The notes under the pieces: model-generated
What the model saw: only the letters and a program-made list of their open reading frames with translations
The model's database searches: none
Told to the model about the DNA's origin: nothing
Assembly (NCBI GenBank): GCA_964572175.1
Contig: CAZNEH010000002.1
Coordinates: 1,406 to 65,405, forward strand
Length of the DNA: 64,000 nt
From: an uncultured Gammaproteobacteria bacterium
GTDB lineage: Bacteria; Patescibacteriota; Patescibacteriia; UBA9570; CAZNEH01
Reading direction: 5' to 3'
Program-made: the position numbers and the translations under genes
Shown: positions 1-45,245 of the stretch, one piece after another
Numbering within the stretch: position 1 is the stretch's first letter
Layout of the letters: each line of letters begins with the position of its first letter

Positions 1-1
1 A

Positions 2-580
2 TTTGATAACCCTGTTCTTCAGCCTTATTTTAAAAACTTTAAAATAGACAGCTTGCCTCAGCTTGATATTTTAGCAGAAATAGAAAAAGAAATAGGTTTT
101 AGAATTAAATTAGATAGCGTTGGTCAATCTACTCTTGGTTTTGGTAAATCTGGCTCAGGCTTAGACGCTATTAATTATTATCGCACCAAGCAATTTGAAA
201 AACTAGCTAATTATTGTATAGACGATGTTAAGGTCACTCGCTATGTTTACGAGTACGGCCTTAATCAAGGTCACCTCTGGTATTCTACTGGGGGAAACCT
301 CACTCCTATTCCTTCTTCTTGGAAACAAGAGTCTACTGTTGGAGAAATCATAGACCAGGCCTTTAAAAAACATCACCGCATTAAAATAAGATATTATACT
401 GTTGACGATAACGGCAGTCGACAAATTACAGACCAAGAAGTCGACATTTTAGAAAAAGACGCTAAACGTCTCAAGGCTTTTTGCCATAAAACTTCCAATA
501 AAAAAGATTTTATTATAAAAAATATATTAACCGCGGAAAACACTCAACAAGTTTACGCCCACCAAAGCTCCCTCATATAA
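2..580 (+). CDS. DnaQ-like (DEDDy) 3'-5' exonuclease domain protein, C-terminal part; ORF is open to the window edge, so it is 5'-truncated
   Basis: Frame is open from nt 2. YCIDDVKVT matches the Exo III motif (Y-x3-D) of PolA/RNase D-type exonucleases. AT-rich host-like codon usage. Confidence 0.35.
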   Translation, partial: FDNPVLQPYFKNFKIDSLPQLDILAEIEKEIGFRIKLDSVGQSTLGFGKSGSGLDAINYYRTKQFEKLANYCIDDVKVTRYVYEYGLNQGHLWYSTGGNLTPIPSSWKQESTVGEIIDQAFKKHHRIKIRYYTVDDNGSRQITDQEVDILEKDAKRLKAFCHKTSNKKDFIIKNILTAENTQQVYAHQSSLI

Positions 581-609
581 ATCCTGCGAAGCTAGCGTAG
601 CAGACTAGG

Positions 610-638
610 TTGCAAAATTAGTTAATATCAGCTAAGAT
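610..638 (+). promoter_or_regulatory. sigma70-like promoter TTGCAA-N17-TAAGAT upstream of the island A gene
   Basis: TTGCAA at 610-615, 17-nt spacer, TAAGAT at 633-638. AAGGAGG SD at 683-689 is 8 nt before the GTG at 698. Confidence 0.35.
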
Positions 639-697
639 ATACCCCTGTTTCACTCGTTCCTTCCCCCCCCAAAAAAGTCCTCAAGGAGGTCTTTATC

Positions 698-1723
698 GTG
701 CCCGACTACGAAATTCGTATGATGGATCGTCCGCTCAACGGGCCGGTCGTCGCTCTGGCTACTGGTACCACTGGTCCCAACGACCCTCTCTCTCCAGAGA
801 ACATCGCCGACATCATGGGAGACTACGACATCGGCCCCAAGATCACGGTCTGGCGCATTCCGCCTGGTCAGATCAATCTTCCCAAGCTGGCTGGCCATCG
901 CGCTCCCTGGGACTTCATCGTCATCGAGGGTGAGCATGGCTCCGTGGTCCTGGTCAACTGGCATGGTCCGGGTCATCTGTGGTCGCCCACCGGTGTGCCC
1001 TGGAAGCAGCTGGTCGCCAGCCTCATCTTCTTCGGCGTCACCCACCTGATCAACTCCAGCGCCGTCGGTACCTACGTCGGTGACAAGCTCTACAACGAGG
1101 GTATGTACGTCGGCGACCTGGCCATCCTCGAGCAGCTTCACTGCAACGAGCAGGACTTTGCCTTCTTCGAGAAGCCGCCTCTCCATCTTCCCTTCGCTCA
1201 GCCCTTCTGCTCCATGCTCAACAACATGGTCGCCACCGTGGCTAGCGAAAATCAGGATTTGGGCATGGTTCATCGAGGGGCCTGGTACTACACGATCAAG
1301 GGGCCTCGCTTCGCCACCGCGGCCGAGTCTATGACTCGCAAGAACATGGGCTTCCACCTTTCGGGCATGACCTACGGTCGAGTTGCCGTCCTCCTGCGCG
1401 AGGCCGGTATTCACACTACCACCATCTGCAAGATCGTAGACCAAGATGCCTGGCATGTGCTCATGGCTCAGCGCTCTGGTCAGGAGGTTAGCGTCGAGCA
1501 GGTCGAGCATGCTCTTGGTGAAGCTGGTCCCAAGTGTGCTCGCCTTCAGGTCAGGACTGCTGGCTACCTTCTGGCTCAATTGTCCCATGGTCGAGGAGAG
1601 CCTTCTCGTCGAGAGCTGGCGTGCTCCAACTGCACTCCTGGTCTGCGCAAGAACTTCCATGGCGACTTGAACAACCTCAACTCGGACCAGCGCCAGCTCT
1701 TGGACTTCCTCGAGCGTCGCTAG
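698..1723 (+). CDS. purine nucleoside phosphorylase / 5'-methylthioadenosine phosphorylase family protein (PNP_UDP_1 fold); GC-rich island A
   Basis: HGPGHLWSP, GVTHLINSSAVGTY, HLPFAQPFC and TIKGPRFATAAESMTRKNMGFHLSGMTYGRVAVLLREAGIHTTTICKIVDQDAW align block-by-block with MTAP/PNP. GTG start with strong SD. About 60% GC versus about 35% in the flanks. Confidence 0.75.
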   Translation: MPDYEIRMMDRPLNGPVVALATGTTGPNDPLSPENIADIMGDYDIGPKITVWRIPPGQINLPKLAGHRAPWDFIVIEGEHGSVVLVNWHGPGHLWSPTGVPWKQLVASLIFFGVTHLINSSAVGTYVGDKLYNEGMYVGDLAILEQLHCNEQDFAFFEKPPLHLPFAQPFCSMLNNMVATVASENQDLGMVHRGAWYYTIKGPRFATAAESMTRKNMGFHLSGMTYGRVAVLLREAGIHTTTICKIVDQDAWHVLMAQRSGQEVSVEQVEHALGEAGPKCARLQVRTAGYLLAQLSHGRGEPSRRELACSNCTPGLRKNFHGDLNNLNSDQRQLLDFLERR

Positions 1724-1757
1724 CTCACCCTGGGCCCACGCAGTCTAACATCAAAAC

Positions 1758-1795
1758 GGGCGCTCCTCCCTCGAGGACCGCCCATCTTTTTTTTT
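1758..1795 (+). terminator. intrinsic terminator of the island A gene
   Basis: GGGCGCTCC / GGACCGCCC stem with an 8-nt loop, followed by ATCTTTTTTTTT. Confidence 0.6.
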
Positions 1796-1806
1796 GCTTT
1801 AAACCC

Positions 1807-2082
1807 CTAAAGCATTGAAATAAATTGTGATGCTAACTGAACTTTCTGAAACCAGTTTTTATTTTTCTGAACGGTCTTTATTTTTTTTCTCTTAATTTGC
1901 TTAACCGGTTGAGCGTAGGCTCTCTTAATACTAGGTCCGAATAACTCGACTAATACTTTTTCCGGGGTATTAAGGAACTGTCCGATTGTTCTTATCTCCA
2001 AAGCTTTTAGAACCCTAGCGGTACGTTTTCCAATACCCGGAAGGTATTCTACTGGTAAATTAGATTTTTTGGAGTAAGACAT
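1807..2082 (-). CDS. helix-hairpin-helix DNA-binding protein (ComEA-like HhH)
   Basis: LPGIGKRTARVL is an HhH GIG motif. Small basic protein. Confidence 0.5.
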   Translation of the reverse strand: MSYSKKSNLPVEYLPGIGKRTARVLKALEIRTIGQFLNTPEKVLVELFGPSIKRAYAQPVKQIKRKKIKTVQKNKNWFQKVQLASQFISML

Positions 2083-2170
2083 ATTTTTATATTTTTAATT
2101 TTATTATGAAACCTTGAGTGATTTTAGCCCTCGACTTTAGTCGGGGAGATAAAATCGTACCGAAAGGTTT

Positions 2171-2800
2171 TTAGGCGTTAAATTTTCTAATGATTCCAAC
2201 CACCTTACCCTGAATAATTACATTCTTAACTTTAAGCGGCTCATAGTTTTTATTTCTAGGTTGTAATCTAATATAATTTTTCTCTTTATGAAATTCTTTT
2301 AACGTTGCTGACCCATCTTCTAATAAGGCGACAACAATATCTCCGTTGCTTGCATAGTCTTTTTTCTCTACTACTACATAGTCTCCATCAGCAATTAAAC
2401 TTTCTACCATAGAGTCTCCCTTAACTCTTAACAAATATGTATTAGGATTTTTCACTAACTCTGGAGGTACGGCCATAGTCTCTGTCTTATCTTCTACAGC
2501 TTCGATTGGTTCACCTGCCGTAATTAATCCGGCTACTGGTAATCGATAAGCGGCGTCTTCATCAGTGTGTGTTTCTTCCATATCTGGGCTAGTGATCATG
2601 ATGTCTCTAGCCTTATTTTCACCCCTACTTAGATATCCACTTTCTTCTAATTCTTTTAAATGTTGATGAACCGTAGACTTAGAAGATACTTTTAGTTTTT
2701 TAGCTATTTCCTCTAAAGTGGGGGAATAACCGTTCTTTTGGATGTATTTAACTATAAAATCAATGATTTTCTTCTTCTTTGGGGTTAGTTGTGGAGACAT
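2171..2800 (-). CDS. lexA: LexA repressor (S24 peptidase)
   Basis: N-terminal winged-HTH. C-terminal S24 domain has the GDSM Ser nucleophile and a downstream Lys. Typical length of 209 aa. Confidence 0.9.
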   Translation of the reverse strand: MSPQLTPKKKKIIDFIVKYIQKNGYSPTLEEIAKKLKVSSKSTVHQHLKELEESGYLSRGENKARDIMITSPDMEETHTDEDAAYRLPVAGLITAGEPIEAVEDKTETMAVPPELVKNPNTYLLRVKGDSMVESLIADGDYVVVEKKDYASNGDIVVALLEDGSATLKEFHKEKNYIRLQPRNKNYEPLKVKNVIIQGKVVGIIRKFNA

Positions 2801-2822
2801 ATTTGTTTTTTTAATATTCTTA

Positions 2823-2851
2823 TGTTATCTTAAGAATACCCGAACAGAAAC
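2823..2851 (-). promoter_or_regulatory. lexA promoter (minus strand TTGACG-N17-TATTCT) with an embedded candidate SOS box GTTCGGTTTCTGTTCGG (GTTC-N7-GTTC)
   Basis: The reverse complement of 2823-2851 reads TTGACG TTCGGTTTCTGTTCGGG TATTCT. recA at 40394-40422 has the same architecture. Confidence 0.5.
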
Positions 2852-2898
2852 CGAACGTCAATAGCCACCTGTGGATAAAATGTTTATTAACTAATTAT

Positions 2899-2941
2899 AG
2901 CTACCCTCTCCACAAGAGGTGGAGAGGGGCTGGGGGAGAGG
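2899..2941 (+). repeat. GC-rich palindromic intergenic element, copy 1 (CCCTCTCCAC-loop-GGTGGAGAGGG + GCTGGGGGAGAGG tail)
   Basis: Nearly identical 45 nt to 15250-15292. Family of 6 copies. Confidence 0.7.
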
Positions 2942-2942
2942 C

Positions 2943-3977
2943 ATGAATATTAAACAAAAACTAAAAATATTAGGCCAAGCTGCGGCTCACGACACTTGTG
3001 ATCCTGGTTGTAAATTATTAAAAGTATTAATGAGTAATGCTTGTGTTAATAATTGTAAATATTGTGCTTCTCGCCGCGAAAACAATATCGAAAGAGCAAC
3101 ATTCGAACCTGAAGAATTAGCCAGACTTTTTATGCAGCTCGTTAGAAAAAAATGGGTCTATGGAATTTTTCTAAGCTCAGCCGTCATCGGTACGACAAAC
3201 TACACCATGAAGCAAATGATCCAATGTGTATATCTAATTCGTAGTTGGGGATTTGGCGGATACATTCATCTAAAAGTTTTACCTGGCGCCGGCGAAGATA
3301 TTTTAGAGTATGCTTCTAAGTTAGTTGATCGCATGAGCGTAAACCTCGAAGCGCCTGGATCTAAATTTTTAAAACAAACCTGCCCAGACAAAAATTATTA
3401 CTCTGACCTACTCAAGCCCATGCAGTTTAATAAGACTTTAAATTTAAATCATGGCCAAACCACTCAAATGGTCGTGGGTGCCACTGACGAGCGTGATCAA
3501 GATATTTTAGATGTTTCCGACAATCTTTATTCTGACATGAAACTTAAGCGAGTTTACTATTCTGCTTTTCAACCTATTAACCAAGAGGGTCAAGGCGGGG
3601 TTCTTCCGCCATCTAGAGCCAAACGAGAATGGCGTCTTTATCAGGCCGATGCTTTATTACGATTTTATGGGTTCAACAAACAAGACTTTGTTTATAATGA
3701 TAAAAAGAATCTATACCTTACCATGGACCCCAAACAAGCCTGGGCTAAACAAAATTTATCCAAACCCATAGAAATTAACCAAGCTGATCGCGACTTATTA
3801 ATGAAAATACCCGGAATCGGCCCTAAAACGGCTGACAACATCTTAGATTTTCGTAAATCCAAGTGCATTACCCAAGATTATGAGCTAAAAAAGCTTAAAT
3901 TAAATATTCCCAAAGCTAGAGATTACCTTTTATTACAAGGGAAGATGTTGCCACAGCAGTTGACCTTTTTGTCATAA
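2943..3977 (+). CDS. radical SAM protein with C-terminal HhH motif, putative DNA repair/modification rSAM; divergent from lexA
   Basis: CVNNCKYC is the CxxxCxxC radical-SAM motif. IPGIGPKTADNIL is an HhH motif. Start is taken at MNIKQ (2943), because the ORF-track N-terminus MERGWGRG is translation of the palindromic repeat. Confidence 0.7.
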   Translation: MNIKQKLKILGQAAAHDTCDPGCKLLKVLMSNACVNNCKYCASRRENNIERATFEPEELARLFMQLVRKKWVYGIFLSSAVIGTTNYTMKQMIQCVYLIRSWGFGGYIHLKVLPGAGEDILEYASKLVDRMSVNLEAPGSKFLKQTCPDKNYYSDLLKPMQFNKTLNLNHGQTTQMVVGATDERDQDILDVSDNLYSDMKLKRVYYSAFQPINQEGQGGVLPPSRAKREWRLYQADALLRFYGFNKQDFVYNDKKNLYLTMDPKQAWAKQNLSKPIEINQADRDLLMKIPGIGPKTADNILDFRKSKCITQDYELKKLKLNIPKARDYLLLQGKMLPQQLTFLS

Positions 3978-4019
3978 AATAGTAAAACTAAAAGGCACCT
4001 TCCAACATCGGAGTCCTCC

Positions 4020-4943
4020 ATGGACAAGTTTCTTCACTTCGCCTTCGGCCGATACTCCCGCATCCGTCGAGGCATCTTCTTCTGCATCATGTTCATCCTC
4101 TTCCTCTTCACCATCTCCTACCCTTTCCTCCTGGCTGCCGCGTACTTCCTCATCCTCCTGCTCATCGACTTCAAGATCTGCCACCACTACATGTCCAAGA
4201 TGCCGTCCGATGGTCAGTGGAGTCTGAGGCGGACTGGTGCGCAGATGATCTTCGCCGAAGAAGGTCTCTCCTTCTATCGTGACGCATTCCTGCGCTATCA
4301 AAAGACAGAGCAGCATCGCATCCGTGAAGAAGGGGAGCAGCGCCAGCGTGAGGCCCGGGCTCTTCGTCTCCAGCGCCAGCAGAAGCACGAGCGTCGCATC
4401 CTCGATCTCATCGTCTTAGCCCAGGAAGTGGTCTCCAAGAAGGTCATGGTTCTTCTCCCTCCGGAGATGCAGTGGCTGTGTTCTATCGACGAGCTCACCA
4501 GCTTCCTGCAGGCTGGAGACAACGCTCGCCTGACCAGCTTCCAGACCGCTGCTCAGCGAGCTATCGAACTTTCTATTTGGCTTCAACGGGCTAGGATCGT
4601 CAAGGTCGAGGTCAAGTTCATCAAACTGGTCCGCAAGAATCACGTCCAGGAAGCTAGGGCACTGGTAGTAGAAGCTGAGAGCTACGCCGTTGCCTTGGAG
4701 CAAGCCAAGGAACTGGGTATCCGGCACACCCCAAACATCCCCATCGGCGACCTTAGAGCCTTGATCCAACACTTCGAGAAGATCAAGGGCCGCAATCGGC
4801 AGATCCTGGTCTGGCAGCAACAGATCGATCAAGGCGATCCCAGGCAGCGCAAACTTCTGACCGCGGTCCAAGCCGCAGTCAAGGGCACTGACCGTCAGTG
4901 GCGCAAGGCCGTCTACGACTTGGAGCAAGCGCTCGAAGCGTGA
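4020..4943 (+). CDS. hypothetical membrane-anchored coiled-coil protein; GC-rich island B
   Basis: Two N-terminal TM helices, then a long Arg/Glu/Gln-rich helical region. About 55% GC. GGAG SD 6 nt upstream. No terminator separates it from the upstream rSAM gene. Confidence 0.55.
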   Translation: MDKFLHFAFGRYSRIRRGIFFCIMFILFLFTISYPFLLAAAYFLILLLIDFKICHHYMSKMPSDGQWSLRRTGAQMIFAEEGLSFYRDAFLRYQKTEQHRIREEGEQRQREARALRLQRQQKHERRILDLIVLAQEVVSKKVMVLLPPEMQWLCSIDELTSFLQAGDNARLTSFQTAAQRAIELSIWLQRARIVKVEVKFIKLVRKNHVQEARALVVEAESYAVALEQAKELGIRHTPNIPIGDLRALIQHFEKIKGRNRQILVWQQQIDQGDPRQRKLLTAVQAAVKGTDRQWRKAVYDLEQALEA

Positions 4944-4950
4944 GACAAAG

Positions 4951-4988
4951 GGAGCTACCTCCTCGTGAGCTAGCTCCTGTTTTTTTTA
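4951..4988 (+). terminator. intrinsic terminator of the island B gene
   Basis: GGAGCTA...TAGCTCC stem followed by TGTTTTTTTT. Confidence 0.6.
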
Positions 4989-5204
4989 TTCTATCTTTAG
5001 ATTTTTGCATAAACGATCCACCTTCTTATTTAGCCTTTCAAACTTATCTTCAGGTATTTTTTTCTCATGTTTAATTATCTGACAAACTGGCTTTCCATAT
5101 TTTTCAATCACTAATATTATATCTTTATAATAAACTTCATTAATCAAAGACCCAATATTAGCCCTTAAATCCATTAAGCTAACTGTTTTTACTTGTTTTT
5201 TCAT
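4986..5204 (-). CDS. Phd/YefM-family antitoxin-like protein; no cognate toxin adjacent
   Basis: N-terminal KTVSLMDLRANIGSLINEV and the IIVIEKYGKPVCQII beta-strand pattern are typical of Phd/YefM. 72 aa. Confidence 0.55.
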   Translation of the reverse strand: MKKQVKTVSLMDLRANIGSLINEVYYKDIILVIEKYGKPVCQIIKHEKKIPEDKFERLNKKVDRLCKNLKIE

Positions 5205-5271
5205 ATAAAATGTATTAATTATTATAATATTATATATTAATTATATCAATTCTATTTAAATTATCAATACA

Positions 5272-10072: not shown

Positions 10073-13000
10073 ATGGCCCAGAAAACAAAAAAGAACGCAT
10101 TTTACTTATCTAGCGCTGTTTTTATTATATTGCTCAGCGTTTTTTTATTTAATTATCCTCCTCAAGAAACAAAAGCATTAACTACTATTAGCTGTGTTAC
10201 TGATACTGCTGTGAGCTCAGCTAGTTATAACACAAGTCATGACCTAGCTTTTAGTGCCGGAGGAGGAAATAATACCTGTGTTTTAACTGGTGATTTTAGT
10301 GTTAATTCTGTTACAGTGAACCCTAATGTTATTTTAACTCATACCGCTGAAAACGCAGATGGAGTTAGTATTACCACGGTTGATTATTTTACTTTAGATG
10401 TTAATGCATCTATCAATGTAGATGAAAAAGGCTGTAACGGTGAGTCTGATGCTGGTGGTTGGGGTCCTAATGCTTCTAATGTTTGCGCTGAATATGATGC
10501 TGGTTGGGGAGATGGCTCTATAAATGGATGGAATGGTACTCAAGGAGCTGGTCATGGTGGAGCCGGAGGACTAGGAACAGACGCTGCTTATGATGATGGT
10601 GGTCTTACCTATGGGTCTCCTACTGCTCCAATTTTATTTGGTTCTTCTGGTGGTCCAGCCTTTGATGACGGTGGAACCTCTGGTGATGGCGGTGGGTTAA
10701 TTATATTAAATATTGGCGGAACTTTTACTCATGACGGGTCTATCTCAGCTAATGCTGGAAACGGTAGTGGAGCTGAGGGTCCAGATTCTAAAGCTTCTGG
10801 TGGTGGATCTGGTGGATCCATTAATATTACCGCTAACTCCATAACTGGTTCTGGAGACTTTGCTGCAGATGGTGGAAATGGTGGAAATGGTACTGATGAT
10901 GACGCCGGTGGTGGAGGTGGGGGCGTATCGCGGTTAAATATGCTGGTGGTGATTATAGTTTTGATTCTACGGATTTTAGCGTAGCTGGCGGAACTATTAC
11001 TGATGGAGCAACCGCTGGAGACAAGGGAACAGTTTATGTAGAAAATACAACCTCTAATGCTGTTAATATTTATCATGGCTTTACCTATGCTTCAGATTAT
11101 AGTGAAGCATCTTGGACTGTAGATTCTTCCGCAACTAACCAATATTGTAACTATGGTGACCCTGATGAAACTGATGAGGCCACTCCTTCAATTACTGTTA
11201 CCGGAGCTCTTACTTTAACCGGGACTTTTGATTGCTCAGATAGCAATGTTACTAGTTTTGATACCGCCGTTGGTACAAGCATGAGCTTAACCGCTCTTAC
11301 TTTTACTTTAGCGGCCGAAGATGTTTGGACTATGAACGATGCTGTTCCTGCTACTGTAACTTCTTCTTCTGCTATTAACTCTAATGTTGAATGGACAAAT
11401 TTAACCAGTCTTAGTATAGATAGCACTTCTAGTATTAATGCTAATGAAAAAGGATGTGCTAGCGAAGGTGCTTCTTATGGTTACTTCCCAGATACTGATC
11501 CTGGAAATTATAATGTTTGTATAAATGCAGAGCCTGCTGGTAATGGCGGTGGACAAGGTAGTGACGGAGGGTGGATTGGCTCCCAAGGGGCTGGTTTTGG
11601 TGGGGCTGGAGGACTAGGTTCTGACGCAGGTTATAGTAATGGTGGCGTGGTCTATGGCTCTAATACTGCGCCTGATTTATTTGGTTCTGCTGGCGGTCCA
11701 GCTTGGGCTGATGATCCTGGTTCTGGTGATGGCGGTGGATTAATTCGCTTAGATGTTGATGGAACTTTTACTCATAATGGTGCCCTTTCTGTAGATGGTG
11801 GATCTGGTGGAGCAGCTACTAATGCTTCTGGTGGTGGATCTGGTGGGTCAATTTATATTACGGCTAGTGAAATATCAAATGGTGCTGGCTCAGACGGTAC
11901 ATTTTCTGCTGATGGTGGCCCTGGTGGAGATGGTAGTGGAGACGATGGTGGTGGTGGAGGCGGAGGACGAATCTCTGTTAGCGCTGTAGACAGTTTTGAC
12001 AATCTAGGCACTTTAACTGCGGCTGGCGTAGCCACTGGCGGAACTGCCACTGGAACTGCGGCTGCTGGTTCTAACGGTACTCTTTATACTCTTTTTTACA
12101 CTGCTCCAGACCAACCAACTCTTAGTCCTTCAGACTCTGCTCGTAACATGGCCCTAACTAGCTCAGCTTATTCTTCAAATGGTGCTTCCCATACTTCTAC
12201 CGATTGGTATGTTTGTACAGATGGCGCTTGCGATGCTAACAGTCTAGTTTGGTATTCAGAAGACGATGCTTCTAACCTAGAATCAATAACTGTAAATACT
12301 ACTAACGGAACTTTTTCAGGAGACTTAGCTGGTAAAACAAAACTTGCTCCAGCAACTAATCATCAAATAAAAGTTCGCCATACTAATGCCGCTGGTGATT
12401 CTACTTGGAGTGTATTTACTGGTCAAAATACCATTGCTAACAATGTTCCTTCCACTCCTACTAACTCTTCGCCAACAGACGCTGCTACAGATCAATCTAA
12501 AACTCCAACAATTTCTGCCTCTTCATACTCAGACTCAGATTCAGATACTCATACTTACAGCACTTGGAATACTTATGAATCTTCAGACTGTTCAGGAAGT
12601 GAAATTTGGTCTTCTGGATCAGTTGCCGCTAATGAATCTACCACTATTAATGAAGCAAGTGGAGCTTTTTCAGACAGTCACTTAGGTGAGGCAGACTTAA
12701 AAGGACATACCCAATATTCTTGGCAAGTAAGATATGACGATGAATACGATGGTCAATCAAGTTATTCAGCTTGTACCACTTTTACTACTTTAAACACTAC
12801 TCCAGTCGCTAGTGCTGGCTCAGACCAAACAGTTATTGAAGGAACTGACGCTACCTTAACGGCTACTTCTACAGATGATGACTGGAATGACACACCAACT
12901 AACACTTGGATAGAGTCTTTAGACTCTTCAGATGGGTGTACTCTTTCTGGAACAACTGCCACTACCTCAAATAAAGAAACTTCTTACACTTGCCAATTCC

Positions 13001-13878
13001 AAGTTACAGCTGACGATGGATCAAGTGGAGAGGATACAGACACCATGACTTTAACTGTCACCGCAGACAATGATGCTCCTGCTCTAGGTTCCATGGAAAC
13101 AAGTGTTACTATCGATGAAGAAGATACTCTTCTTGCCACCTACACTGCCACAGACGCAGACACTGCTTCTCTAAGTTTTACTGCTTCAAGTTTACCAACA
13201 GGCTCAACTTTAACAGATAACTCTAATAATACTGCTACTTTAACTTGGACCCCAGACTCAACTCAATCAGGAACATACACTTTAACTCTTCAAGTCTCAG
13301 ACGGCACAACTGCAGTCACTCAAAATATTACCATCACTGTAAACGACACAGTCCAAGACGAAGAGGAAGAAGAACCAGTAAACACCATCGAAGACATTGG
13401 TCTAGTCTCTGGCACAGAATCAGGCCCAGGTATTGTCACTTTATACGACAACGACAATGAAGAATTATGTTCAGTTAGAGCTTGGAACGAGGGTGGGTCA
13501 GTTCCATTCGCAGTTCGTTTCCTAGACACTACTTACGTGGCAGTTGTAAAAAATAAAGTAGGCACTACTATTCACCTTTATGATCTAAATTGTAATATTA
13601 TTGAGAAAAAGAGATTATCACCTAAACTACATCCTCGTAACATTGTCACTAGAAACTTCTTAGGTAAAACTACTTCTCAAGAAATAGGTTTAACCTCACG
13701 AAGAGGAAGCACAGTATATGGTAAGATCTTCAGATATAATCCAAACAAAGACAAATGGTACTTACTAAGACAAAAAACATTTAGACCAGTTCCAACTGGA
13801 TATAACCTAAAGAAAACCAAAAAAGGAAATATTCTCATCAAGAAAAACAATAAAACTCTCCACAAGTGGGAGATATAA
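10073..13878 (+). CDS. giant Gly-rich cell-surface protein (paralog of 33699-37490), interrupted by a single-nucleotide frameshift in a G5 tract near 10919-10923; pseudogene, phase-variable gene or sequencing error
   Basis: ORF-track pieces 10073-10984 and 11281-13878 are one gene. Frame B is open from 10921, and its translation GRIAVKYAGGDYSF parallels GRAAIYYNDASGFT in the intact paralog. Total length is 3806 nt, which is 3n-1. Confidence 0.7.
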
Positions 13879-13922: not shown

Positions 13923-13970
13923 ATCTGCTTTTTTATGTTAGCCTTATAATATAAATAATAATCTTCTATT

Positions 13971-14011
13971 CCCCCTCTCCACGAAGGTGGAGAGGGGGCT
14001 AGGGGGTGAGG
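13971..14011 (+). repeat. GC-rich palindromic intergenic element, copy 2
   Basis: CCCCCTCTCCACGAAGGTGGAGAGGGGG + CTAGGGGGTGAGG. Confidence 0.7.
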
Positions 14012-15249: not shown

Positions 15250-15292
15250 TAGCTACCCTCTCCACGAAGGTGGAGAGGGGCTGGGGGAGAGG
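15250..15292 (+). repeat. GC-rich palindromic intergenic element, copy 3
   Basis: Near-identical to copy 1. Confidence 0.7.
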
Positions 15293-15326
15293 CAAGAGAG
15301 GAATCTGCATAACCTGTGGATAAAAA

Positions 15327-15366
15327 AGCTCCCTCTCCACGAAGGTGGAGAGGGCGGGGGGAGAGG
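15327..15366 (+). repeat. GC-rich palindromic intergenic element, copy 4 (tandem to copy 3, separated by a CCTGTGGATAAAA motif)
   Basis: Near-identical to copy 6 at 53235-53274. Confidence 0.7.
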
Positions 15367-15438
15367 AATTCCTAACTTTAGCCATTTTTTCTTCATGTGG
15401 ACAAAAAACTTGACAATTTTTTAGCTGGGCTTGACAAA

Positions 15439-22737: not shown

Positions 22738-24162
22738 ATGAAAAATATTATCCAAAATTTAACCTTAGAACAAGTTGATAAAATCAGCTATGGTCCTAAG
22801 CGTAAAAACCGCAGTCGGTATACAGAGTTAACCGACCAAGCCAAGACTATTTTAATTTACCAAGCTCCTTATGTCATTACTATGGACGAGCAAGATAAAT
22901 TAAAAATTTTACGCCATCATTCTATCTTTATAAAAAATAACAAGATAGAAAAGATAGTTAAGCTAAAAAATAAACCATCTAACGTCGATTTAATATACGA
23001 CGCTTCAGACAGGGGCGGAATAGTAGTTACCCCCGGCTTTGTTAATGCCCACGCCCATCCTCCTATGTATCTTCTTCGTTCCTCTACTATGTTAGAACGG
23101 GAAAGTGCTACTATCGAAGAATCTTTAGAGCGCGCTCAAGAGATAGAGCGAGCCATGAATACTGAAGACTTGTTTATTTCTGCTTTAGGTGACTTTACTG
23201 AGCAACAAAAAATGGGGACCACTACTATCTTAAGCCATTACCACACTCCCGCCGCTACTTCCAAGGCTGCCGAAACTTCTCATCTACGCTTAGTCGATGC
23301 TTTGAGTTGCGCTAGCTCTACAGATCCTAAGGCTAATCTTTCTCAAGCCATAAAACATTTAAAAAATAATAAAAATCCGCTAGTAAAAGTAGGGCTGACC
23401 ATGCATGGTGTTCATCGAGCTACCTGGCCGCTATTAAAGAGAGTAAAAGCAGCCATGGATAAACACCCGGAATTAATTCTAACTATCCATTGCGGAGAAA
23501 CTGAACAAGAAATAGAAAGCTGTAAACAAAAATTAGGCGTCCGCCCAGTTGAAGCTTTGCACCAGGCCGGGTTACTAAGTAAAAAATTAATTCTCTCTCA
23601 TGCCGTACACTTTACCGCTCAAGAAATTAAACTTCTAGGTAAGCATAGCGTTGGCTTAGTTCATTTGCCCACTTCTAACCGCATTCACAAGTCTGGAAAG
23701 TTTAAATATTATTTATATAACGCCTTTGACGCTGAAAAAAATATTGCCTTAGGCACTGATAGTGTTATTTCTAAGAACCGCTTAGATCTTTTAACTGAGG
23801 CTCTTCAAGCCAAGATCATGCACCAAGATTCAGAGTGCCCCCTTACTTACGCTCAGCTTTTTAAGATGATAACATCTCAAGGAGCTAAAGTTTTAGGGCT
23901 AAACAAAGTCGGCCGTATTTTACCAGGCTACCAAGCCGACATAGCTCTTTGGAAACTAAAAGACAGGGGATTTATTCCTTTTGATGAAAACAATCCTTCT
24001 ACTTTAATCGGAAATCTTATCACTCACGGTGGTAGAAACGTTAGAGATTTAATGATAAACGGTAAATTCGTAATCTCTAACCGGGTTCACAACTTAGTTA
24101 ATGAAAGTCAATTACTTATAGAACTAGAAAAAAGACATACAGAACTTAGAAAGAGAATTTAG
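22738..24162 (+). CDS. amidohydrolase family protein (MtaD / guanine-deaminase-like metal-dependent deaminase)
   Basis: GFVNAHAHPP HxH metal motif, HCGE, and Asp in LGTDS. Confidence 0.75.
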   Translation: MKNIIQNLTLEQVDKISYGPKRKNRSRYTELTDQAKTILIYQAPYVITMDEQDKLKILRHHSIFIKNNKIEKIVKLKNKPSNVDLIYDASDRGGIVVTPGFVNAHAHPPMYLLRSSTMLERESATIEESLERAQEIERAMNTEDLFISALGDFTEQQKMGTTTILSHYHTPAATSKAAETSHLRLVDALSCASSTDPKANLSQAIKHLKNNKNPLVKVGLTMHGVHRATWPLLKRVKAAMDKHPELILTIHCGETEQEIESCKQKLGVRPVEALHQAGLLSKKLILSHAVHFTAQEIKLLGKHSVGLVHLPTSNRIHKSGKFKYYLYNAFDAEKNIALGTDSVISKNRLDLLTEALQAKIMHQDSECPLTYAQLFKMITSQGAKVLGLNKVGRILPGYQADIALWKLKDRGFIPFDENNPSTLIGNLITHGGRNVRDLMINGKFVISNRVHNLVNESQLLIELEKRHTELRKRI

Positions 24163-27200: not shown

Positions 27201-30163
27201 ATTCTACAGATCAACGCTTATCTTTAGCTAGTTCTACTCCAGACACTCAATTTAATATTGATCCCCAAGGAGTTAGAATATTACACTATTTAAATGTTCA
27301 AGACAGTAACAACGCCAATGCCACTGAGGCAGATTGTAACAAAGGATGTTTAAGCTCAGATAATAATACCAACTGGAGCTTTTACGATATTTCTACTTAC
27401 ACCACTTCTTCTCAGGCTTGGCATTTTACAAGCTCTAGTGATTATACTTATAACTCTTCTTATATAGACATTGCCCTGGATGCTGGGGCTACTTATTCTC
27501 GTTTAAAGGATTTAGGCGGAGCAACTTATCAAGCTGCTAGCCTACCAGGGCTTAGTCATCGCAAACCAATTACTATTACTAATTCCGGATCGTCTTTAAC
27601 TGATCATCAAATTGAACTTTCAATAACTTACGATTTAGACATGCAGGCTGATTTTGATGATCTAAGATTTACCACTTCAGACGGACAAACAGAAATAGAC
27701 TATTGGATTCAAGATTATACCGCTTCTACATCAGCTACTATCTGGGTTGAAGTTCCAACTATCGCCGCCACCCCAACTGATACTACTATTTACATGCATT
27801 ATGGAAACGCAAGTACTTCCACAACTTCAAATATTGATAATACTTTTCTATTTGGAGACGATTTCGATGATGCCTCAGTAGATACAAATAAATGGACCAC
27901 TACCGGAATCTTAGAAGAAACCGGCGGGTCATTATTAATGAATGCTACCGAAGGTGTTTGGGCTACTAATTATATTGTTGAAGACGACTCTATTACTACT
28001 TTTCAAGCTTATATTGATGTTACTGGGACAAAGTCTAATCTAGGATATGTGGAAGAATCTCATCAATTCGAGGATGATTTAGATTCTGGTGAAAAAGGAT
28101 TTGACTTTGGATTCTGGACTTCCACAAGTTTATATTTTGAAAGAGGGGGAAGTACCTATGAAGAGAGCTCAGTAACTTATGGGACTGGCTGGAATGAATA
28201 TACTGCCACTTACCAAGAAGGAACTTCAATTAAATTTGAATACCCTAGTAGTTCTTTTACTGAAGACACCGCTACCTCTGTGGTCGCAGTTTCAGATGCT
28301 CCTCATTTACAAATTTATTCTTTTGATCGAGTTGATTTTAGAGCAGACTATGTATTTGTTAGAAAATATACCTCTAATACTGTGGGCGCATCTTTGGGTT
28401 CAGAAGAAGAAGTTAGTTACGATAATGTACAAATTATTCCTGTTTCAGTTCCAGCCTACGCCAATATAATTTCTTTTACAGAAACTCTAGGAGCCGCTAA
28501 TGCTGGTAGCGTGGCCTATCAACTATCTAAGAATGGAACTAATTGGTACTATCATAATGATTCCTCTTGGACTGCGGTGTCTGTTGATTCTGTGCACAAT
28601 AATACAGCTACAGAAGTAGATAATTTAATCACAAACTTCACCACAGATGTAGGTACAGGAGATTTATATTTTAAAGCTTTCTTAATCTCAAGTGGATCAC
28701 AAAAAGTTGAACTAGATGCCATAACGTTAACTTATAACGCTGTTCCTCAGGAGCCAACTAGTCTATCTCCTTCAACCACTGACATAGCTTTATCAGGTAC
28801 AGCTTCGGCTACTATTAGCGACATGATGGGATCTCACCAGTCCACTTCTTGGAAAATGCAAACTGGTTCAGATTGTTCTGTAGACTCAGGTGTAGCCTTT
28901 TCCTCCTTGGTAGATTCTACTAACAAAACATCTATTACTTATTCAGGTTTAGACTTTAGCACTTCTTATTACTTATGTGTTGCCAATCATAACGAAGGCG
29001 GCCAAGGAGATTGGCAGTCACAGTCATTTACTACTGTAGCTAATCAAGCTCCAACTGCTAGCGCTGGTACAGATATTACTATCTCAGAAGATGATGAATC
29101 TACGGCCCTAGATGGAACTAGCTCTTCAGACCCAGAAAGCCAGGCCTTAACTTATACTTGGTTAGAAACAGTTGACGCCTCAGATGGATGTTCTTTATCT
29201 AGTCCTAGTAGCTCTACTCCAACTGTTACTGTTTTAAATAAAGACACCAGTTTTAATTGTACCTTTTCTTTAGAAGTAGAAGACACTCAAGGTGCTACTT
29301 CTACGGATACAGTTAATCTTTATATCACTGCCGACAACGACGCTCCAGCTTTTGGATCAATTGCCTCTACTCAAAATATAGATGAAGAATCAGTTTTACT
29401 TATTTCCTTTACCTCTTCAGATCCAGATACTTCCTCTTTGACTCTTTCAGCCTCTAATCTTCCAACAGGTTCCACTTTTACAGACAACCTAAATAACACA
29501 GGAACATTTAATTGGTCTCCAGATGGAACGCAGTCTGGAATTTATACTGTTACCTTCCAATTAACTGATGGTGAAAATACTACCACTCAAACCGTAACCA
29601 TCACAGTTAATGATACTGTTCAAGAAGAGGGGGAGGGTGACGAAGAAGAGGAGGAAGAACCAGTTAACACTATCGAAGACATTGGTCTAGTCTCAGGTAC
29701 AGACTCAGGCCCAGGCATTGTCACTCTTTATGGTAATGACAACGAAGAACTATGTTCAGTCCAAGCTTGGAATGAAGGTGGAGCAGTTCCATTTAGAGTC
29801 CGCTTCTTAGACACTAACTATATTGCTGTAGTAAAAAATAAAACAGGTACCACTATCCATCTTTACGATCTAAATTGTAATATTATTGAGAAAAAAAGAT
29901 TATCCCCTAAACTACATCCTCGTAACATTGTCACTAGAAACTTCTTAGGTAAAACTACTTCTCAAGAAATAGGTTTAACCTCACGAAGAGGAAGCACAGT
30001 ATATGGTAAGATCTTCAGATATAATCCAAACAAAGACAAGTGGTACTTACTAAGACAAAAAACATTTAGACCAGTTCCAACTGGATACAACCTAAAGAAA
30101 ACTAAAAAGGGAAATATTCTTCTTAAGAAAAACAACAAAACTCTCCACAAGTGGGAAATCTAG
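24224..30163 (+). CDS. giant secreted surface protein (1979 aa): beta-helix-like tandem repeats, DUF2341/LamG-like region, cadherin-like (ADNDAP) domains, shared C-terminal module
   Basis: Signal peptide. Three tandem repeats of about 230 aa ([10 protein letters not shown]...GYRETFN). C-terminal 170 aa nearly identical to the other two giant proteins. Confidence 0.8.
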
Positions 30164-31227: not shown

Positions 31228-31283
31228 ATATTTGGTAAATAGTTAATGGTTTATGGTTTGTAGTTTATCACATTAAAATAAAT

Positions 31284-31317
31284 AAAAAAAGAGGGAACTC
31301 GGGTAAGTGATTCCCTC
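31284..31317 (-). terminator. intrinsic terminator of the island C gene (minus strand)
   Basis: Minus strand reads AGAGGGAA-loop-TTCCCTC then TTTTTTT. The loop is the 14-nt inverted-repeat sequence. Confidence 0.6.
31297..31310. repeat. left arm of a perfect 14-bp inverted repeat (ACTCGGGTAAGTGA) flanking island C
   Basis: Exact reverse complement of 31858-31871. Confidence 0.8.
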
Positions 31318-31838
31318 TAGGTGTTGATGAGGTGGTCCAGAAAGGCTTCGAATGCCGCCGGGTCTCGGTCCGCGTAGAGCGTCTGCTCTCCGTGGACAAA
31401 GGACAGGTGCGGAATTTCCAGTAGCTTCTGGGCCAGGTTCTCGCGGGTCAGGACTTGGGCTTCTCCCCAGACCCCTTCCGCCAGGTAGTTCTCGTGGGTG
31501 ACATTCGGAGCCGCTGCTTGAACTTCCATCCCTCCGAGGTCTTGCTTCAGGCGGGCCAGTTCAGCGTTGTACTCCATCTCGAAGGCCACGCCAGGGTTGC
31601 GTCCTTGCAGAAGGACTTGGTCTCCGTTGAACGTCACCTTGTACTTGGGTACGACCATCAGAGCGCACTGCAGACCCATGCCCTTGGCCAGGTCTTGGCA
31701 GTCCTTAGGGTCTCGTCGGCACTCGGAAGAGCACCGGTTGTTGCAGCCAGGGTCAGGATCCTTGAACACGCCAGTCATCTCGTTTCCGATCCGACCGGCT
31801 TGGTTGAGGAAGTAGACCGTGCAGATAAAAAGTTGCAT
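31317..31838 (-). CDS. hypothetical protein, Cys-rich N-terminus (CNNRCSSECRRDPKDC); GC-rich island C
   Basis: About 60% GC. GGGGGA SD before the ATG. No recognisable family. Confidence 0.5.
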   Translation of the reverse strand: MQLFICTVYFLNQAGRIGNEMTGVFKDPDPGCNNRCSSECRRDPKDCQDLAKGMGLQCALMVVPKYKVTFNGDQVLLQGRNPGVAFEMEYNAELARLKQDLGGMEVQAAAPNVTHENYLAEGVWGEAQVLTRENLAQKLLEIPHLSFVHGEQTLYADRDPAAFEAFLDHLINT

Positions 31839-31857
31839 GTTTCCCCCTTCGGGGGAG

Positions 31858-31871
31858 TCACTTACCCGAGT
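31858..31871. repeat. right arm of the 14-bp inverted repeat (TCACTTACCCGAGT) flanking island C
   Basis: Lies immediately 5' of the island C gene, beside the TCCCCCTTCGGGGGAG hairpin. Confidence 0.8.
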
Positions 31872-31901
31872 CTTAAGAAAGGTTAGTTTATTTTTGCTAA
31901 T

Positions 31902-31930
31902 TTGTCAATACATAGAAAATATAATACAAT
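31902..31930 (+). promoter_or_regulatory. guaA promoter TTGTCA-N17-TACAAT
   Basis: Exact spacing, 6 nt upstream of the ATG at 31937. The -35 overlaps a possible divergent promoter for island C. Confidence 0.45.
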
Positions 31931-31936
31931 GGTTGT

Positions 31937-33698: not shown

Positions 33699-36600
33699 AT
33701 GGCTCAAAAAACAAAAAAGAAGGCATTTTACTTATCTAGCGCGGTTATTATTGCAATAATCAGCATTTTTTTATTTAATTACCCCCCTCAATCAGTAAAT
33801 GCAGCCGATGAATCAGTTTCTTGTAATTCTACCACCCTAGATCAAACCGCTTTAGATGCTTTAGCTGGAGATGCTGTTACTTTTACTGACGGTGGAGACG
33901 GTATTTGTATTTTTACTGGAACTTTAGGCGCTGCTTCTGTTACTGTTAACGCTGATGTTACTTTAACTCACAATGCTGAGGATGAAGATGGATTAAGTAT
34001 TACCACTGCAGATTATTTTCTCTTAAATGGAAACATAGACGTTGAGGGAAAAGGTTGTTCTGGCGGAGAAAATGGAAGCACTGATGGTCATGGTCCAGAC
34101 ACATCTACCGGGGTTTGTGCTCAAACTACTAGTGGTTATGGTAAGAGTGGTGATAGTGGAGGGGCACATGCTGGCTCTGGTGGCGAAGGACATTATGGTG
34201 GGGCAGTTCAATTAACAACTTATGGAGACTCCAACAATTCCTCTTTACTCGGATCTGGAGGTGGAGCTACCAGTAATCCAAATACTTATGGTGGAAATGG
34301 CGGCGGATTAATTGCTTTAACAATAGGAGGAACTTTAACTGTAAACGGTAGTATAAATGCTGATGGGCAAGATGGTTATGGAACAGCGAATCGTGGTGGC
34401 GGAGGATCTGGGGGTTCAATTAAAGTGACAACTACTACCTTAGCTGGGTCTGGGGCAATTTCTGTTGATGGAGGTAATGGTAATACAAATTACTCTGGTG
34501 GCGGTGGTGCAGGCAGGGCTGCAATTTATTATAATGATGCTAGCGGCTTTACTTTAACTAATATTACTGCTGCTAAAGGTTTAAAATCTTCTGGAACTAC
34601 TGGTAATGCCGAAGATGGAACCGTTGGTTCAATTTTTATCTTAGATCAAGATTCTGACATCTTAACTACTACTACTGGCTTAGAGCTGCAAGACGGGGAT
34701 GATTACACTAAATCCGAAATTACTTTTTTAGATGGTGCTCAAATCTGGTGTGATAGCTTTGCCACTCTTAATATCGGAGCCACTGGTACCTTAGCAATGG
34801 ATGATAATACCTGGACTTGTGACAGTGTTGATACTATAAATATGTCTGCTGGCACTTGGACCACATCTGGAACCAGTACCATGAGCTTTAATAAAGCAGG
34901 TAGTCAGGTAGATTGGGATATTTCTAATAATCTTACTTTAAATAACCTAACTTATAATGGAGGATATGCCGGAATCACTAGTGCTAGTGGCGGGCTTTTA
35001 ACTTTAGATAACCCCATTGATATTAATTTAGTAAATACAGATATTATTTCTAGTGTAGACTTGGACGCTACTAATCTAACTCTAGATGCTAGCTCATCTG
35101 TTAGCGCCAAAGGAACAGGTTGTGCCGGTGGAATAACTAGCAGTACCAATGGTTATGGACCCAATACCTCCACAGGAATTTGTACTCAAGGAGAAAGTGG
35201 TTATGGTAAAGGAAATGATGGAGGAGGGGCGCATGCTGGTGCTGGCGGTCGAGGAAATTATGGTGACGCTACCCAGTTAACAACCTATGGCAGTGCTGAT
35301 AATCCATCTTTATTTGGTTCAGGTGGAGGATCTAATGCTAATCCAAATAATTATGGCGGATATGGAGGAGGAAAAGTTTTTATTGATGTTACTGATACTT
35401 TGTCTGTAGCTGGAGATATAAATGCTGACGGACAAGATGGTTATGGTTCTGGTAGTCGTAGTGGCGGAGGCTCTGGAGGGGCTTTAAAAATTACTACTGG
35501 AACTTTATCTGGAGCTGGAACAATTTCTGTTGATGGTGGCAATGGTAATACAGATTACTCTGGTGGAGCCGGTGGCGGCCGAGCTTATGTTGGCTATGCT
35601 GTTAATGATTCATTTAATCTTTCTAATATTACTTCCACCAAAGGTTTAAAATCTTCTGGAACTCCTGGTAGTGCAGTTGATGGAGGCGATGGCTCTGTTT
35701 CTACCCTTGCTTACACCGCTCCAACACAACCAACTCTTAGTCCTTCAGACACATCTCGTAACATGGCCCTAACCAGCTCAGCTTATTCTTCAAATGGTGC
35801 TTCTCATACTTCTACTGATTGGTATGTTTGTACTGATGCTGCTTGTGATGCTAGTAGCCTAGTCTGGTACTCTGAAGATGATGCTTCTAACTTAGAAGCA
35901 GTAACTGTAAATACAACTAATGGAACTTTTGCCGGCACCTTGGCTGGTGAAACAAAGCTTGCTCCAGCAACTAGTCATCAAATAAAAGTTCGCCATACCA
36001 ACGCTGCTGGTGATTCTACTTGGAGTAGCTTTACCGGTCAAAGCACTCAAGCTAATAATGTTCCAAGTGCTCCTACTAATGTAGCTCCTGCAGATGCTAC
36101 CACTGACCAATCTAAAACTCCAACCCTAACTTCTTCTATATACTCAGATTCAGACTCAGATGATCATGGAGATTCTACTTGGGAAATATATGAATCTTCA
36201 GATTGTACTGGAGATAAAGCCTGGAGATCATTAGATGACTCTTCTAATTTAGAATCAATTGATACTTCTGCCGCTGGAACCTTTCTTGATGACTATGCTA
36301 CTCCAGGAGAATTAAAAGGGCACACTGAATATTCTTGGAAAGCTAGGCACGACGATGAATATTCTGGTCAATCTTCAGACTCATCTTGTACAAAATTTAC
36401 TACCTTAAACACCACTCCAACTGCCAATGCAGGCGCAGATCAAACCGCTACTGAAGGAGACGACGTAACCCTAAGCGGGTCATCTACAGATTTAGACTGG
36501 AACGACACAGTTACTGAAACTTGGATTGAATCACTTGATTCTTCAGATGCTTGTACTCTTTCTGGAACAACGGCCACTACTTCAGATAAAGAAACATCTT

Positions 36601-44271: not shown

Positions 44272-44305
44272 AAGTAAATAAAAATTAATTATTTTTTGTT
44301 AACTA

Positions 44306-44349
44306 ATTTTAACAAAAAATAGGCTACCTGTCAAGCTCTTAAAAGAGCT
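44306..44349 (-). promoter_or_regulatory. groES promoter (minus strand TTGACA-N17-TAAAAT) abutted by the 16-nt palindrome AGCTCTTAAAAGAGCT; not a canonical CIRCE
   Basis: On plus coordinates the -35 is 44329-44334, the -10 is 44306-44311, and the palindrome is 44334-44349. Confidence 0.45.
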
Positions 44350-44365
44350 AATTTTAGCCAATTAT

Positions 44366-44394
44366 TTGACATATTAACCTGGTCTTAGTAAGAT
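44366..44394 (+). promoter_or_regulatory. near-consensus promoter TTGACA-N17-TAAGAT for the island D gene
   Basis: Back-to-back with the groES promoter. Same TAAGAT -10 as island A. Confidence 0.5.
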
Positions 44395-44422
44395 AAAAAT
44401 GACTTCTACCAAGGAGAAAGTC

Positions 44423-45199: not shown

Positions 45200-45202
45200 G
45201 AC

Positions 45203-45245
45203 GCAGGTGCTTTAGCTCACGGGCTATCGCACCTCGCTTTTTTTT
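45203..45245 (+). terminator. intrinsic terminator of the island D gene
   Basis: GCAGGTGC...GCACCTCGC stem followed by TTTTTTTT. It contains the stop codon of the convergent gene. Confidence 0.6.

Follow-up and report, generated by a model that had tools for sequence, protein, structure and literature searches.

Island A is a GC-rich segment near the left end of a 64,000-nucleotide stretch of contig CAZNEH010000002.1 (the window), and it contains a single gene placed between two convergent host genes. Judged from its sequence, the product of this gene is an intact, strongly diverged homologue of 5′-methylthioadenosine phosphorylase (MTAP), predicted to have the trimeric purine nucleoside phosphorylase (PNP)/MTAP fold. 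The neighbours of the MTAP-like gene encode an RNase-H-like exonuclease, a helix-hairpin-helix (HhH) protein, LexA and a radical SAM protein, and outside the islands the window is ordinary bacterial chromosome, with genes for RpoB, RpoC, FtsK, RecA, LexA, UvrA, UvrD, GroES, IMPDH, GuaA and a Mur ligase. The initial annotation had described the gene as about 60% GC and compositionally alien, and this holds: its GC is 0.595, with 0.63, 0.42 and 0.73 at the first, second and third codon positions (GC1, GC2 and GC3), against a GC3 of 0.16–0.42 in host genes, a gap much too wide to be due to chance. The 341-residue open reading frame with its GTG start was found as described there, and the three motifs listed for it (TGTTGP, FHLSGMTYGRV and VDQDAW) are all present. 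The coordinates of the gene, its signals and the other GC-rich islands of the window are collected in Table 1.

Table 1. Features of the MTAP-like gene and GC-rich islands of the window (aa, amino acids; nt, nucleotides)
Feature	Position	Strand	Details
Left edge of GC-rich segment	581–609	.	Abuts stop codon of upstream RNase-H-like gene; upstream of putative promoter
Putative sigma-70-type promoter TTGCAA-N17-TAAGAT	610–638	+	TTGCAA 610–615, TAAGAT 633–638; read from sequence
Antisense open reading frame	650–1660	−	336 aa; overlaps MTAP-like coding sequence; all homology on + frame
Homopolymer pair, C8 then A6	663–676	+	In 5′ untranslated region; read from sequence
Shine–Dalgarno sequence AAGGAGG	683–689	+	8 nt upstream of GTG 698
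MTAP-like coding sequence	698–1723	+	GTG start, 341 aa, frame intact over 341 codons
Key codons	W88 959–961; D248 1439–1441; D250 1445–1447	+	Residue map
Imperfect tandem duplication, 33 nt/11 aa (GTYVGDKLYNE/GMYVGDLAILE)	1067–1117	+	Repeat scan; copies 1067–1084, 1100–1117
Intrinsic-terminator-like hairpin, then AUC + U9	1758–1795	+	Hairpin 1758–1783, U9 1787–1795
Island A	about 581–1797		MTAP-like gene
Island B	about 3978–4990	+	Gene 4020–4943; 307-aa orphan, GC3 0.73
Island D	about 31228–31936	−	Gene 31317–31838; 173-aa orphan
Island C	about 44272–45223	+	Gene 44399 or 44423 to 45199; 258–266-aa orphan
Island F	about 58787–59190	+	104–106 aa, GC3 0.62–0.67
Island E	62285 to beyond 64000	−	Genes 62377–62826, 62950–63456, 63579–63989, all −

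The DNA at the left edge of island A is GC-rich, with 16 of 29 bases G or C (0.55 vs 0.33 in host intergenic DNA; binomial p = 0.011). The expression signals of the gene, a Shine–Dalgarno (SD) sequence and a terminator, are intact, and both agree with the initial annotation: AAGGAGG precedes the GTG at the proposed spacing, and the gene is followed by a hairpin of 10 bp with one internal mismatch that folds at −22.6 kcal/mol (z = −2.2). A rigid-pattern terminator scan did not call this hairpin; with its U-run it looks a convincing terminator. The promoter proposed earlier fared less well. Its letters are present, but they match 8 of 12 consensus positions, fall below the threshold of the consensus promoter scan, which did not call the site, and such sites are no more numerous in the window than in shuffled sequences. 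That this site is the promoter of the MTAP-like gene is a possibility, not a finding. The homopolymer pair lies in the leader of the gene, and tracts of this kind can change length via slippage. The exact start of the protein is uncertain, because another gene caller chose an alternative ATG at 719 and residues 1–7 are disordered in the structural model described below. The antisense frame is most likely a by-product of GC-rich DNA and no gene.

The family assignment is consistent across methods. The protein matches Pfam PNP_UDP_1 (PF01048) at 42.3 bits, above the cut-off of 25.1, and misses the NCBIfam MTAP equivalogs by a wide margin (TIGR01694, 94.0 vs 274.85; NF006492, 94.7 vs 437). Its best sequence matches in the PDB are MTAPs, namely 4glf (E = 3.5e-18) and the human enzyme 1cb0 (E = 7e-13). 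An AlphaFold2 monomer model built from a 62-sequence alignment reached a predicted local distance difference test score (pLDDT) of 86.8 and a predicted template modelling score (pTM) of 0.89, and the top 50 Foldseek matches of this model are all MTAPs at E values of about 1e-21 (4glf: TMq 0.71, TMt 0.83). The initial annotation of a diverged MTAP/PNP-family protein is thereby borne out.

We then mapped the active site by alignment to human MTAP, the sequence of which is identical to 1CB0, with residue roles taken from the paper on Schistosoma MTAP (SmMTAP; PMC5147791). Most positions are kept: the phosphate-loop threonine (human T18, window T24), the histidine pair (H61 and H65, now H89 and H93), T93/A94 (S121/A122), F177 (F205), M196/T197 (M224/T225), the base-binding aspartates D220/D222 (D248/D250) and H137, contributed by the neighbouring subunit (H163). 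The aspartate pair, which lies in the VDQDAW motif, is invariant across the alignment. The phosphate-binding residue R60 is lost and replaced by W88, at a column where the 58 ordinary MTAPs without exception have Arg, as do four of the five other members of the insert-bearing clade described below. The TGG codon of W88 is two changes away from the Arg codons used by this gene, and it is the same in an independent assembly. Human S178 is changed to A206 (S206A), and the Glu of the 'PE' motif, invariant in the 58 ordinary MTAPs, is Val (E229V). The protein further carries N105L and P138V, and one conserved Asp is deleted. The tandem duplication of 11 residues adds six residues after the conserved SAVG motif, an insertion relative to all aligned homologues. 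The mapping proposed in the initial annotation thus found the base-binding Asp pair kept and the phosphate-binding Arg exchanged for Trp; to judge by this map, the site for the nucleoside appears intact and that for phosphate altered.

Relatives of the protein are distant. A word-index search of 5.8 billion protein clusters found only the MTAP-like gene itself, and a profile search of the same clusters added only ordinary MTAPs (P0151 and P0152). With HMMER, an exhaustive search through 1.84 billion sequences representing about 15 billion proteins returned 913 relatives, none of them above 34% identity, the best non-self match being 33–34% identical. A search of viral contigs, phage records and plasmids gave no relevant match. 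A GTDB genome scan found ordinary, mostly Actinobacterial MTAPs of 23–34% identity, selected by the single peptide pattern that was used, and a metagenome scan found ordinary MTAPs in composition-matched contigs, one of which (L038) encodes a full-length-looking protein without the insert described next. Ordinary MTAPs from genomes and metagenomes alike lie in DNA of matching composition.

Three proteins (P0002, P0011 and P0048) align end to end with the window protein, and these, together with P0014 and P0029, share with it an insert of about 20 residues after the phosphate loop. Members of this clade also carry a C-terminal Cys/His-containing tail, C-x(1-3)-C ... LLxFL/VL. We take the insert to be the mark of the clade because the tail is present in ordinary long bacterial MTAPs too, such as the L038 protein. 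A neighbour-joining tree recovers the clade weakly (32 of 100 bootstraps for a four-member core). No branch is longer than that of the window protein, which lies at a mean Kimura distance of 2.0 from ordinary MTAPs, vs 1.16 for these among themselves. In P0048 the active-site Arg is Pro and Met196 is Gln. P0014 retains the canonical residues, which makes the derived state specific to the window lineage; P0048 lost its Arg independently.

The composition of the clade genes proved as distinctive as the insert. In three other samples (contigs L002, L003 and L004) the clade genes have a GC of 0.61–0.63 and a GC3 of 0.71–0.76, vs a GC3 of 0.37–0.52 in the genes next to them; with L050, described below, included, the flanks span a GC3 of 0.21–0.58. 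They are led by SD sequences (AAGGAGG, GCAGGAG or GAAGGAGG), whereas nearly all of their neighbours have none and some look leaderless, and their codon usage tracks the window islands (r = 0.41–0.74) and not their own flanks. All five clade members for which the context could be read are GC-rich and SD-led relative to their flanks.

The MTAP-like gene has company in its own window. Against the window mean GC of 38.6%, we found at least six GC-rich, gene-sized units with at least eight genes, covering about 8% of the sequence. Island A is thus one of at least six units and not a single event. The GC3 of island genes is 0.62–0.75, vs 0.16–0.42 in the 39 host genes, with no intermediates; C occupies 43% of third positions in island genes vs 14% in host genes, and A 11% vs 35%. 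Relative synonymous codon usage of the MTAP-like gene correlates at 0.75 with the other islands and at −0.24 with the host genes, and its codon usage is poor in NCG codons. Of the island genes, six of seven have an SD core before the start, as do 4 of 29 in the host set (Fisher p = 0.0007). The islands occupy intergenic gaps, all of their genes are closed by a hairpin with a T-run, and the non-coding parts of island A are GC-rich too. The stop codon is TAG in five of seven island genes vs 12 of 39 host genes, which is suggestive only. Pfam, PHROG and PADLOC scans gave no family for the island proteins except the MTAP-like protein and an acyl-carrier-like protein of island E. A repeat scan found no direct or inverted repeats flanking island A, the window contains no integrase, transposase or reverse transcriptase gene, and tRNA and Rfam scans of the window gave no match. 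In the literature we found no description of such a GC-rich, SD-led gene class.

The individual islands have features of their own. The island B protein has N-terminal hydrophobic segments and a Gln/Arg/Glu-rich region; its gene begins 42 nucleotides past the radical SAM gene, shows no clear promoter and is closed by a terminator made of a hairpin and T8. Island C lies between groES and a Wzy_C-type gene, and the only database match of its product is itself. It carries TTGACA-N17-TAAGAT at 44366–44394, with the same −10 hexamer as in island A, and AAGGAG before the ATG at 44423. Island D lies between the IMPDH and GuaA genes, and its 5′ leader CTCGGGTAAGTGA is complementary to TCACTTACCCGAG just past the stop codon; the ends of the transcript could pair, or the unit could have short inverted ends. 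Island E comprises at least three GC-rich genes, encoding two acidic proteins and the acyl-carrier-like protein with a PP-binding domain, and runs off the window. An intergenic module of about 86 nucleotides with a T-run and a GGAGG start context is repeated in it (62824–62909 and 63454–63539; 86% identical). Island F has its own hairpin-T terminator at 59163–59186 and no family match.

A compositional jump alone could mean an assembly chimera, with GC-rich DNA of another organism spliced into an AT-rich contig. The initial annotation had asked whether the junctions are real, and they are reproduced independently: window positions 1–5259, with islands A and B and both edges of each, recur at 100% identity in a Logan contig of SRR8146440, and islands D and C are crossed by further Logan contigs. 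Every island is moreover gene-sized, intergenic and closed by a terminator, and the arrangement around the MTAP-like gene recurs in contigs L050–L055 from other runs. We rejected a chimera, which is now barely conceivable.

Several host genes have a TATAAT-like box 4–9 nucleotides before the start and no SD (5307, 22738, 31937, 56119 (−) and 62280 (−)), so leaderless or SD-independent translation may be widespread in the host. The host chromosome is AT-rich and largely SD-less or leaderless, and the organism is probably a Patescibacterium; its 16S gene lies outside the window. One Parcubacteria subgroup lacks the anti-SD motif according to a survey (PMC9297842), and if the host belongs to it, the SD sequences of the islands may not work as such.

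The history of island A is best seen by comparison with a related genome. Clade member P0014 is encoded on contig L050 (ENA ERZ24794666) and on near-identical contigs of other runs, and the order of genes is common to the window and L050: PDDEXK/Cas4, RNase-H-like, MTAP-like, small HhH protein (−), LexA (−) and radical SAM. The slot of island A is therefore not empty in the related genome but holds a clade member. The flanking proteins are well conserved, at 75.7% identity for PDDEXK/Cas4 (Kimura distance 0.30), 74.4% for LexA (0.32), 62.2% for the RNase-H-like protein (0.52), 62.0% for the radical SAM protein (0.53) and 54.5% for the HhH protein (0.52), whereas the two MTAP-like proteins are only 29.7% identical (Kimura distance 1.5–1.8) and differ more than ordinary MTAPs of different phyla do. 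Likewise, flanking DNA is 67–70% identical and the MTAP-like genes are not alignable at the DNA level. The L050 gene nevertheless has the same character as its counterpart, with a GC of 0.615, GC1/2/3 of 0.66/0.45/0.73 between flanks of GC3 0.21–0.38, a CAGGAGG SD, a TAG stop and a hairpin-T terminator. It has only 47 nucleotides upstream, which leaves no room for a promoter. Further GC-richer genes lie near clade genes at L050 811–1179 (−) and L004 4207–4521 (−), with GC3 of 0.58 and 0.79, respectively; therefore, the multi-island pattern is not peculiar to the window. The HhH gene beside island A (1807–2082, −), directly downstream of lexA, encodes a stand-alone 91-residue protein consisting only of the helix-hairpin-helix 'thumb' motif of Y-family polymerases, and it is conserved in L050.

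We also compared four-fold degenerate sites within identical amino acids in the flanking orthologues. The same third base is found at 18–42% of these sites, and saturation predicts 26–31%. Identity at the level of saturation means that silent sites have essentially turned over since the window and L050 genomes diverged. Under the mutation bias of the host, a foreign gene would be expected to shed its excess of GC3 over such a span, yet both copies stand at 0.73. A comparison of single-nucleotide polymorphism rates among L050–L055 was uninformative, as these contigs are 99.9–100% identical.

These observations bear on where the GC-rich gene came from. A single recent transfer of the complete unit from a high-GC bacterium, for example an Actinobacterium, unameliorated and filling a salvage gap, would account for the strong compositional contrast, the sharp edges and the unit's own SD and terminator, and Actinobacterial MTAPs are among the pattern-based genome matches. 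However, the latter are ordinary MTAPs of 25–32% identity that the search pattern itself selected, and the best non-self match found anywhere is no closer than stated above. Codon usage poor in NCG codons and a GC3 of only 0.73 are unlike typical Actinobacteria. Eight genes share the composition in question, and L050 holds a syntenic GC-rich homologue between flanks that are close to saturated at silent sites. We regard recent import from a high-GC source as very improbable: it fails because no donor turned up in the collections searched, because of the syntenic homologue, and because the GC3 distribution is tight and without intermediates. An origin in a high-GC clade such as Actinobacteria, about which the initial annotation had asked, is not supported: nothing exceeds 34% identity in the searches, and the closest relatives are GC-rich single genes in AT-richer, SD-poor genomes.

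Two readings then compete. The MTAP-like gene may be an old resident of its slot that would have evolved three to six times faster than its neighbours while a gene-local process held its composition, so that GC richness would have persisted across a divergence that about saturated the flanking silent sites. Alternatively, moron-like, GC-rich single-gene cassettes from an unsampled reservoir may have been inserted or swapped recurrently, twice in the same slot, in which case the GC richness would always be recent and have had no time to decay; candidate reservoirs are a mobile element of a new kind, a virus or the physical host of these bacteria. Residence is favoured by the shared slot, by the fact that none of the five contexts read places a clade member in a GC-rich genome, and by the lack of mobility signatures. 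Several points weigh against it, and most of them speak for the cassettes. GC1, GC2 and the GC of the non-coding parts of island A are raised along with GC3, as expected of a gene from a genome of about 61% GC (an estimate made with the Lawrence–Ochman regressions), which argues against simple selection on synonymous codons. SD sequences occur in a genome that barely uses them, clade members other than those of the window and L050 sit in unrelated, non-syntenic contexts, and the distance between the window protein and its L050 counterpart exceeds that between ordinary MTAPs of different phyla. L050 has no counterpart of island B after its radical SAM gene, which points to turnover: individual islands come and go. 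In addition, we know of no mechanism that holds one gene at a GC3 of 0.73 in a genome of GC3 0.27, the orthology of the two MTAP-like genes is presumed from position alone, clade support is weak, and the window protein and P0014 do not pair in the neighbour-joining tree. On the other hand, neither a donor nor a closer relative turned up in the 1.84 billion representatives, the 5.8 billion clusters or the collections of viruses, phages and plasmids; integrase, transposase and reverse transcriptase genes are missing from the window, and island A has no flanking direct or inverted repeats; and independent insertion of the same rare family twice at one intergenic site would be an unlikely coincidence. 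We consider recurrent replacement rather unlikely, and slightly favour the old resident over it.

Overall, the best explanation is that of a diverged MTAP homologue of a GC-rich gene class, a long-term resident of its slot that would cleave nucleosides, and we hold this composite view with evenly balanced confidence. That the gene is a long-term occupant and no recent import we infer, residence time included, from the clade member at the same position in a related genome. A broader proposal, which we advance tentatively and with some doubt, is that this lineage, itself AT-rich, poor in SDs and in part leaderless, maintains a second gene class: GC-rich (a GC3 of about 0.73 at any host GC3 from 0.25 to 0.5), SD-led, terminator-bounded, fast-diverging and non-ameliorating. 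Some process confined to the single gene would then have to increase GC and accelerate divergence at once, for instance a mutational or repair bias of local reach, gene conversion that is biased at hotspots of exchange, or selection on the whole transcript, as for the stability of the mRNA or a translation regime of its own. Within this class, the MTAP-like gene would be the first with a recognisable ancestry.

What the protein does is a separate question. The conserved base and ribose sites argue that it binds and cleaves a purine nucleoside for salvage, and MTA, 5′-deoxyadenosine and adenosine are the natural substrate candidates for the family. The window adds an adjoining radical SAM gene, the IMPDH and GuaA genes and, 21 kb away at 22738–24162, an amidohydrolase. 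The initial annotation called the latter an MtaD-like deaminase; it is of the TRZ/ATZ/MtaD/DadD/guanine-deaminase type, but falls below every equivalog cut-off. With these genes in the window, a role in salvage or by-product disposal seems reasonable. That the enzyme complements a reduced purine or MTA salvage is plausible, but less so without the phosphate-binding Arg: R88W may weaken phosphorolysis or change the chemistry, and the loss of this invariant Arg together with other near-invariant residues could mean a loss of function.

The protein might accordingly be seen as a decaying or repurposed enzyme that has kept its fold and lost phosphorolysis, whether as a hydrolase, as a nucleoside- or base-binding protein or as a gene drifting to a pseudogene. 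The exchange at the otherwise nearly universal Arg column, the substitutions E229V, S206A, N105L and P138V, the deleted Asp, the 11-residue duplication and the longest branch in the tree all fit such a course, as does P0048, which also lacks the Arg and Met196. Against this, the frame is intact over all 341 codons, the fold is confidently predicted, the expression signals are intact, and no change has occurred in the base-binding Asp pair, the His pair, the Met/Thr of the ribose site or the His given by the neighbouring subunit. We judge decay or repurposing unlikely on balance, though its chance is a real one. An anti-phage effector was also entertained and rejected: the gene has no PADLOC match and its neighbours encode the RNase-H-like, HhH, LexA and radical SAM proteins. 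PHROGs and PADLOC scans for defence or phage functions gave nothing except the acyl-carrier-protein match of one island E gene.

As a rare, insert-bearing offshoot of a well-known salvage enzyme, the protein is of modest interest for nucleoside metabolism in bacteria with reduced genomes. The more interesting result is the setting: GC-rich genes that are led by SDs, diverge fast and do not ameliorate, in a genome that is AT-rich and poor in SDs. An atypical composition is commonly taken as the mark of a recent horizontal transfer, fading with time; here one slot in two long-diverged genomes holds equally GC-rich, SD-led genes with products of only 30% identity. If the composition is maintained, the amelioration clock used for dating transfers is challenged, and a gene-local mutational or selective regime of a new kind would be at work, possibly tied to SD-dependent versus SD-independent translation. 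If instead cassettes are replaced, an unsampled reservoir of GC-rich genes feeds these genomes.

Repeated sequences were also seen elsewhere in the window. A GC-rich palindromic element CCCTCTCCACGAAGGTGGAGAGGG with a G-rich tail has five intergenic copies (2902–2943, 13969–14010, 15252–15293, 15327–15368 and 53235–53276), two of them identical, and is similar to a terminator or a repetitive extragenic palindromic (REP) element. Long blocks of 63–87% nucleotide identity (12050–13656, 29531–29941 and 35665–37268) are shared, near their 3′ ends, by the genes of three surface-type proteins of very large size (865, 1979 and 1269 residues; Big_9/He_PIG domains), which form a paralogous family, possibly with recombination.

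Among known systems, island A resembles phage morons in consisting of one gene with a terminator and possibly its own promoter, in sharp compositional contrast and between unrelated genes. It differs in lying in a bacterial chromosome beside housekeeping genes, in having no phage-family matches and in that its slot is filled in a diverged relative. Like genomic islets undergoing amelioration in the Lawrence–Ochman model, it is atypical in GC at all three codon positions and in codon usage. Unlike them, it shows no sign of amelioration in two syntenic genomes despite near-saturated flanking silent sites, and the islands have no GC3 intermediates and no donor or mobility genes that we could find.

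At the level of the protein, the PNP-domain ATP nucleosidase effectors of the Cap17/Detocs DtcC type share the PF01048 superfamily and are likewise stand-alone accessory genes, but the window protein has no PADLOC match and its best sequence and structure matches are MTAPs, not nucleosidase-type proteins. Methylthioinosine phosphorylase and PNP (PA3004, 3OZB; the PunA/DeoD-type trimeric PNP) belong to the same superfamily and fold. Their matches are far weaker (NF006599, 54 bits; PNP models, 17–28 bits; 3ozb, E = 0.009), and the window protein keeps Asp at the equivalent of MTAP Asp220. The closest likeness is to MTAP itself (EC 2.4.2.28; human 1CB0, SmMTAP 4L5C and the metagenomic RsfP 4GLF). 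Differences from it are clear: 21–34% identity, 94 bits against NCBIfam cut-offs of 275–437, the replacement of Arg60 by Trp, of the 'PE' Glu by Val and of Ser178 by Ala, and the inserts of about 20 residues after the phosphate loop and of six residues after SAVG. The fold is shared (TMt 0.72–0.84), and the window protein keeps the Asp pair of VDQDAW, the phosphate-loop Thr, the His pair, the SAVG, GPRF and GMT motifs and the neighbouring-subunit His, together with the C-terminal Cys-containing tail found in long bacterial MTAPs such as the L038 protein.

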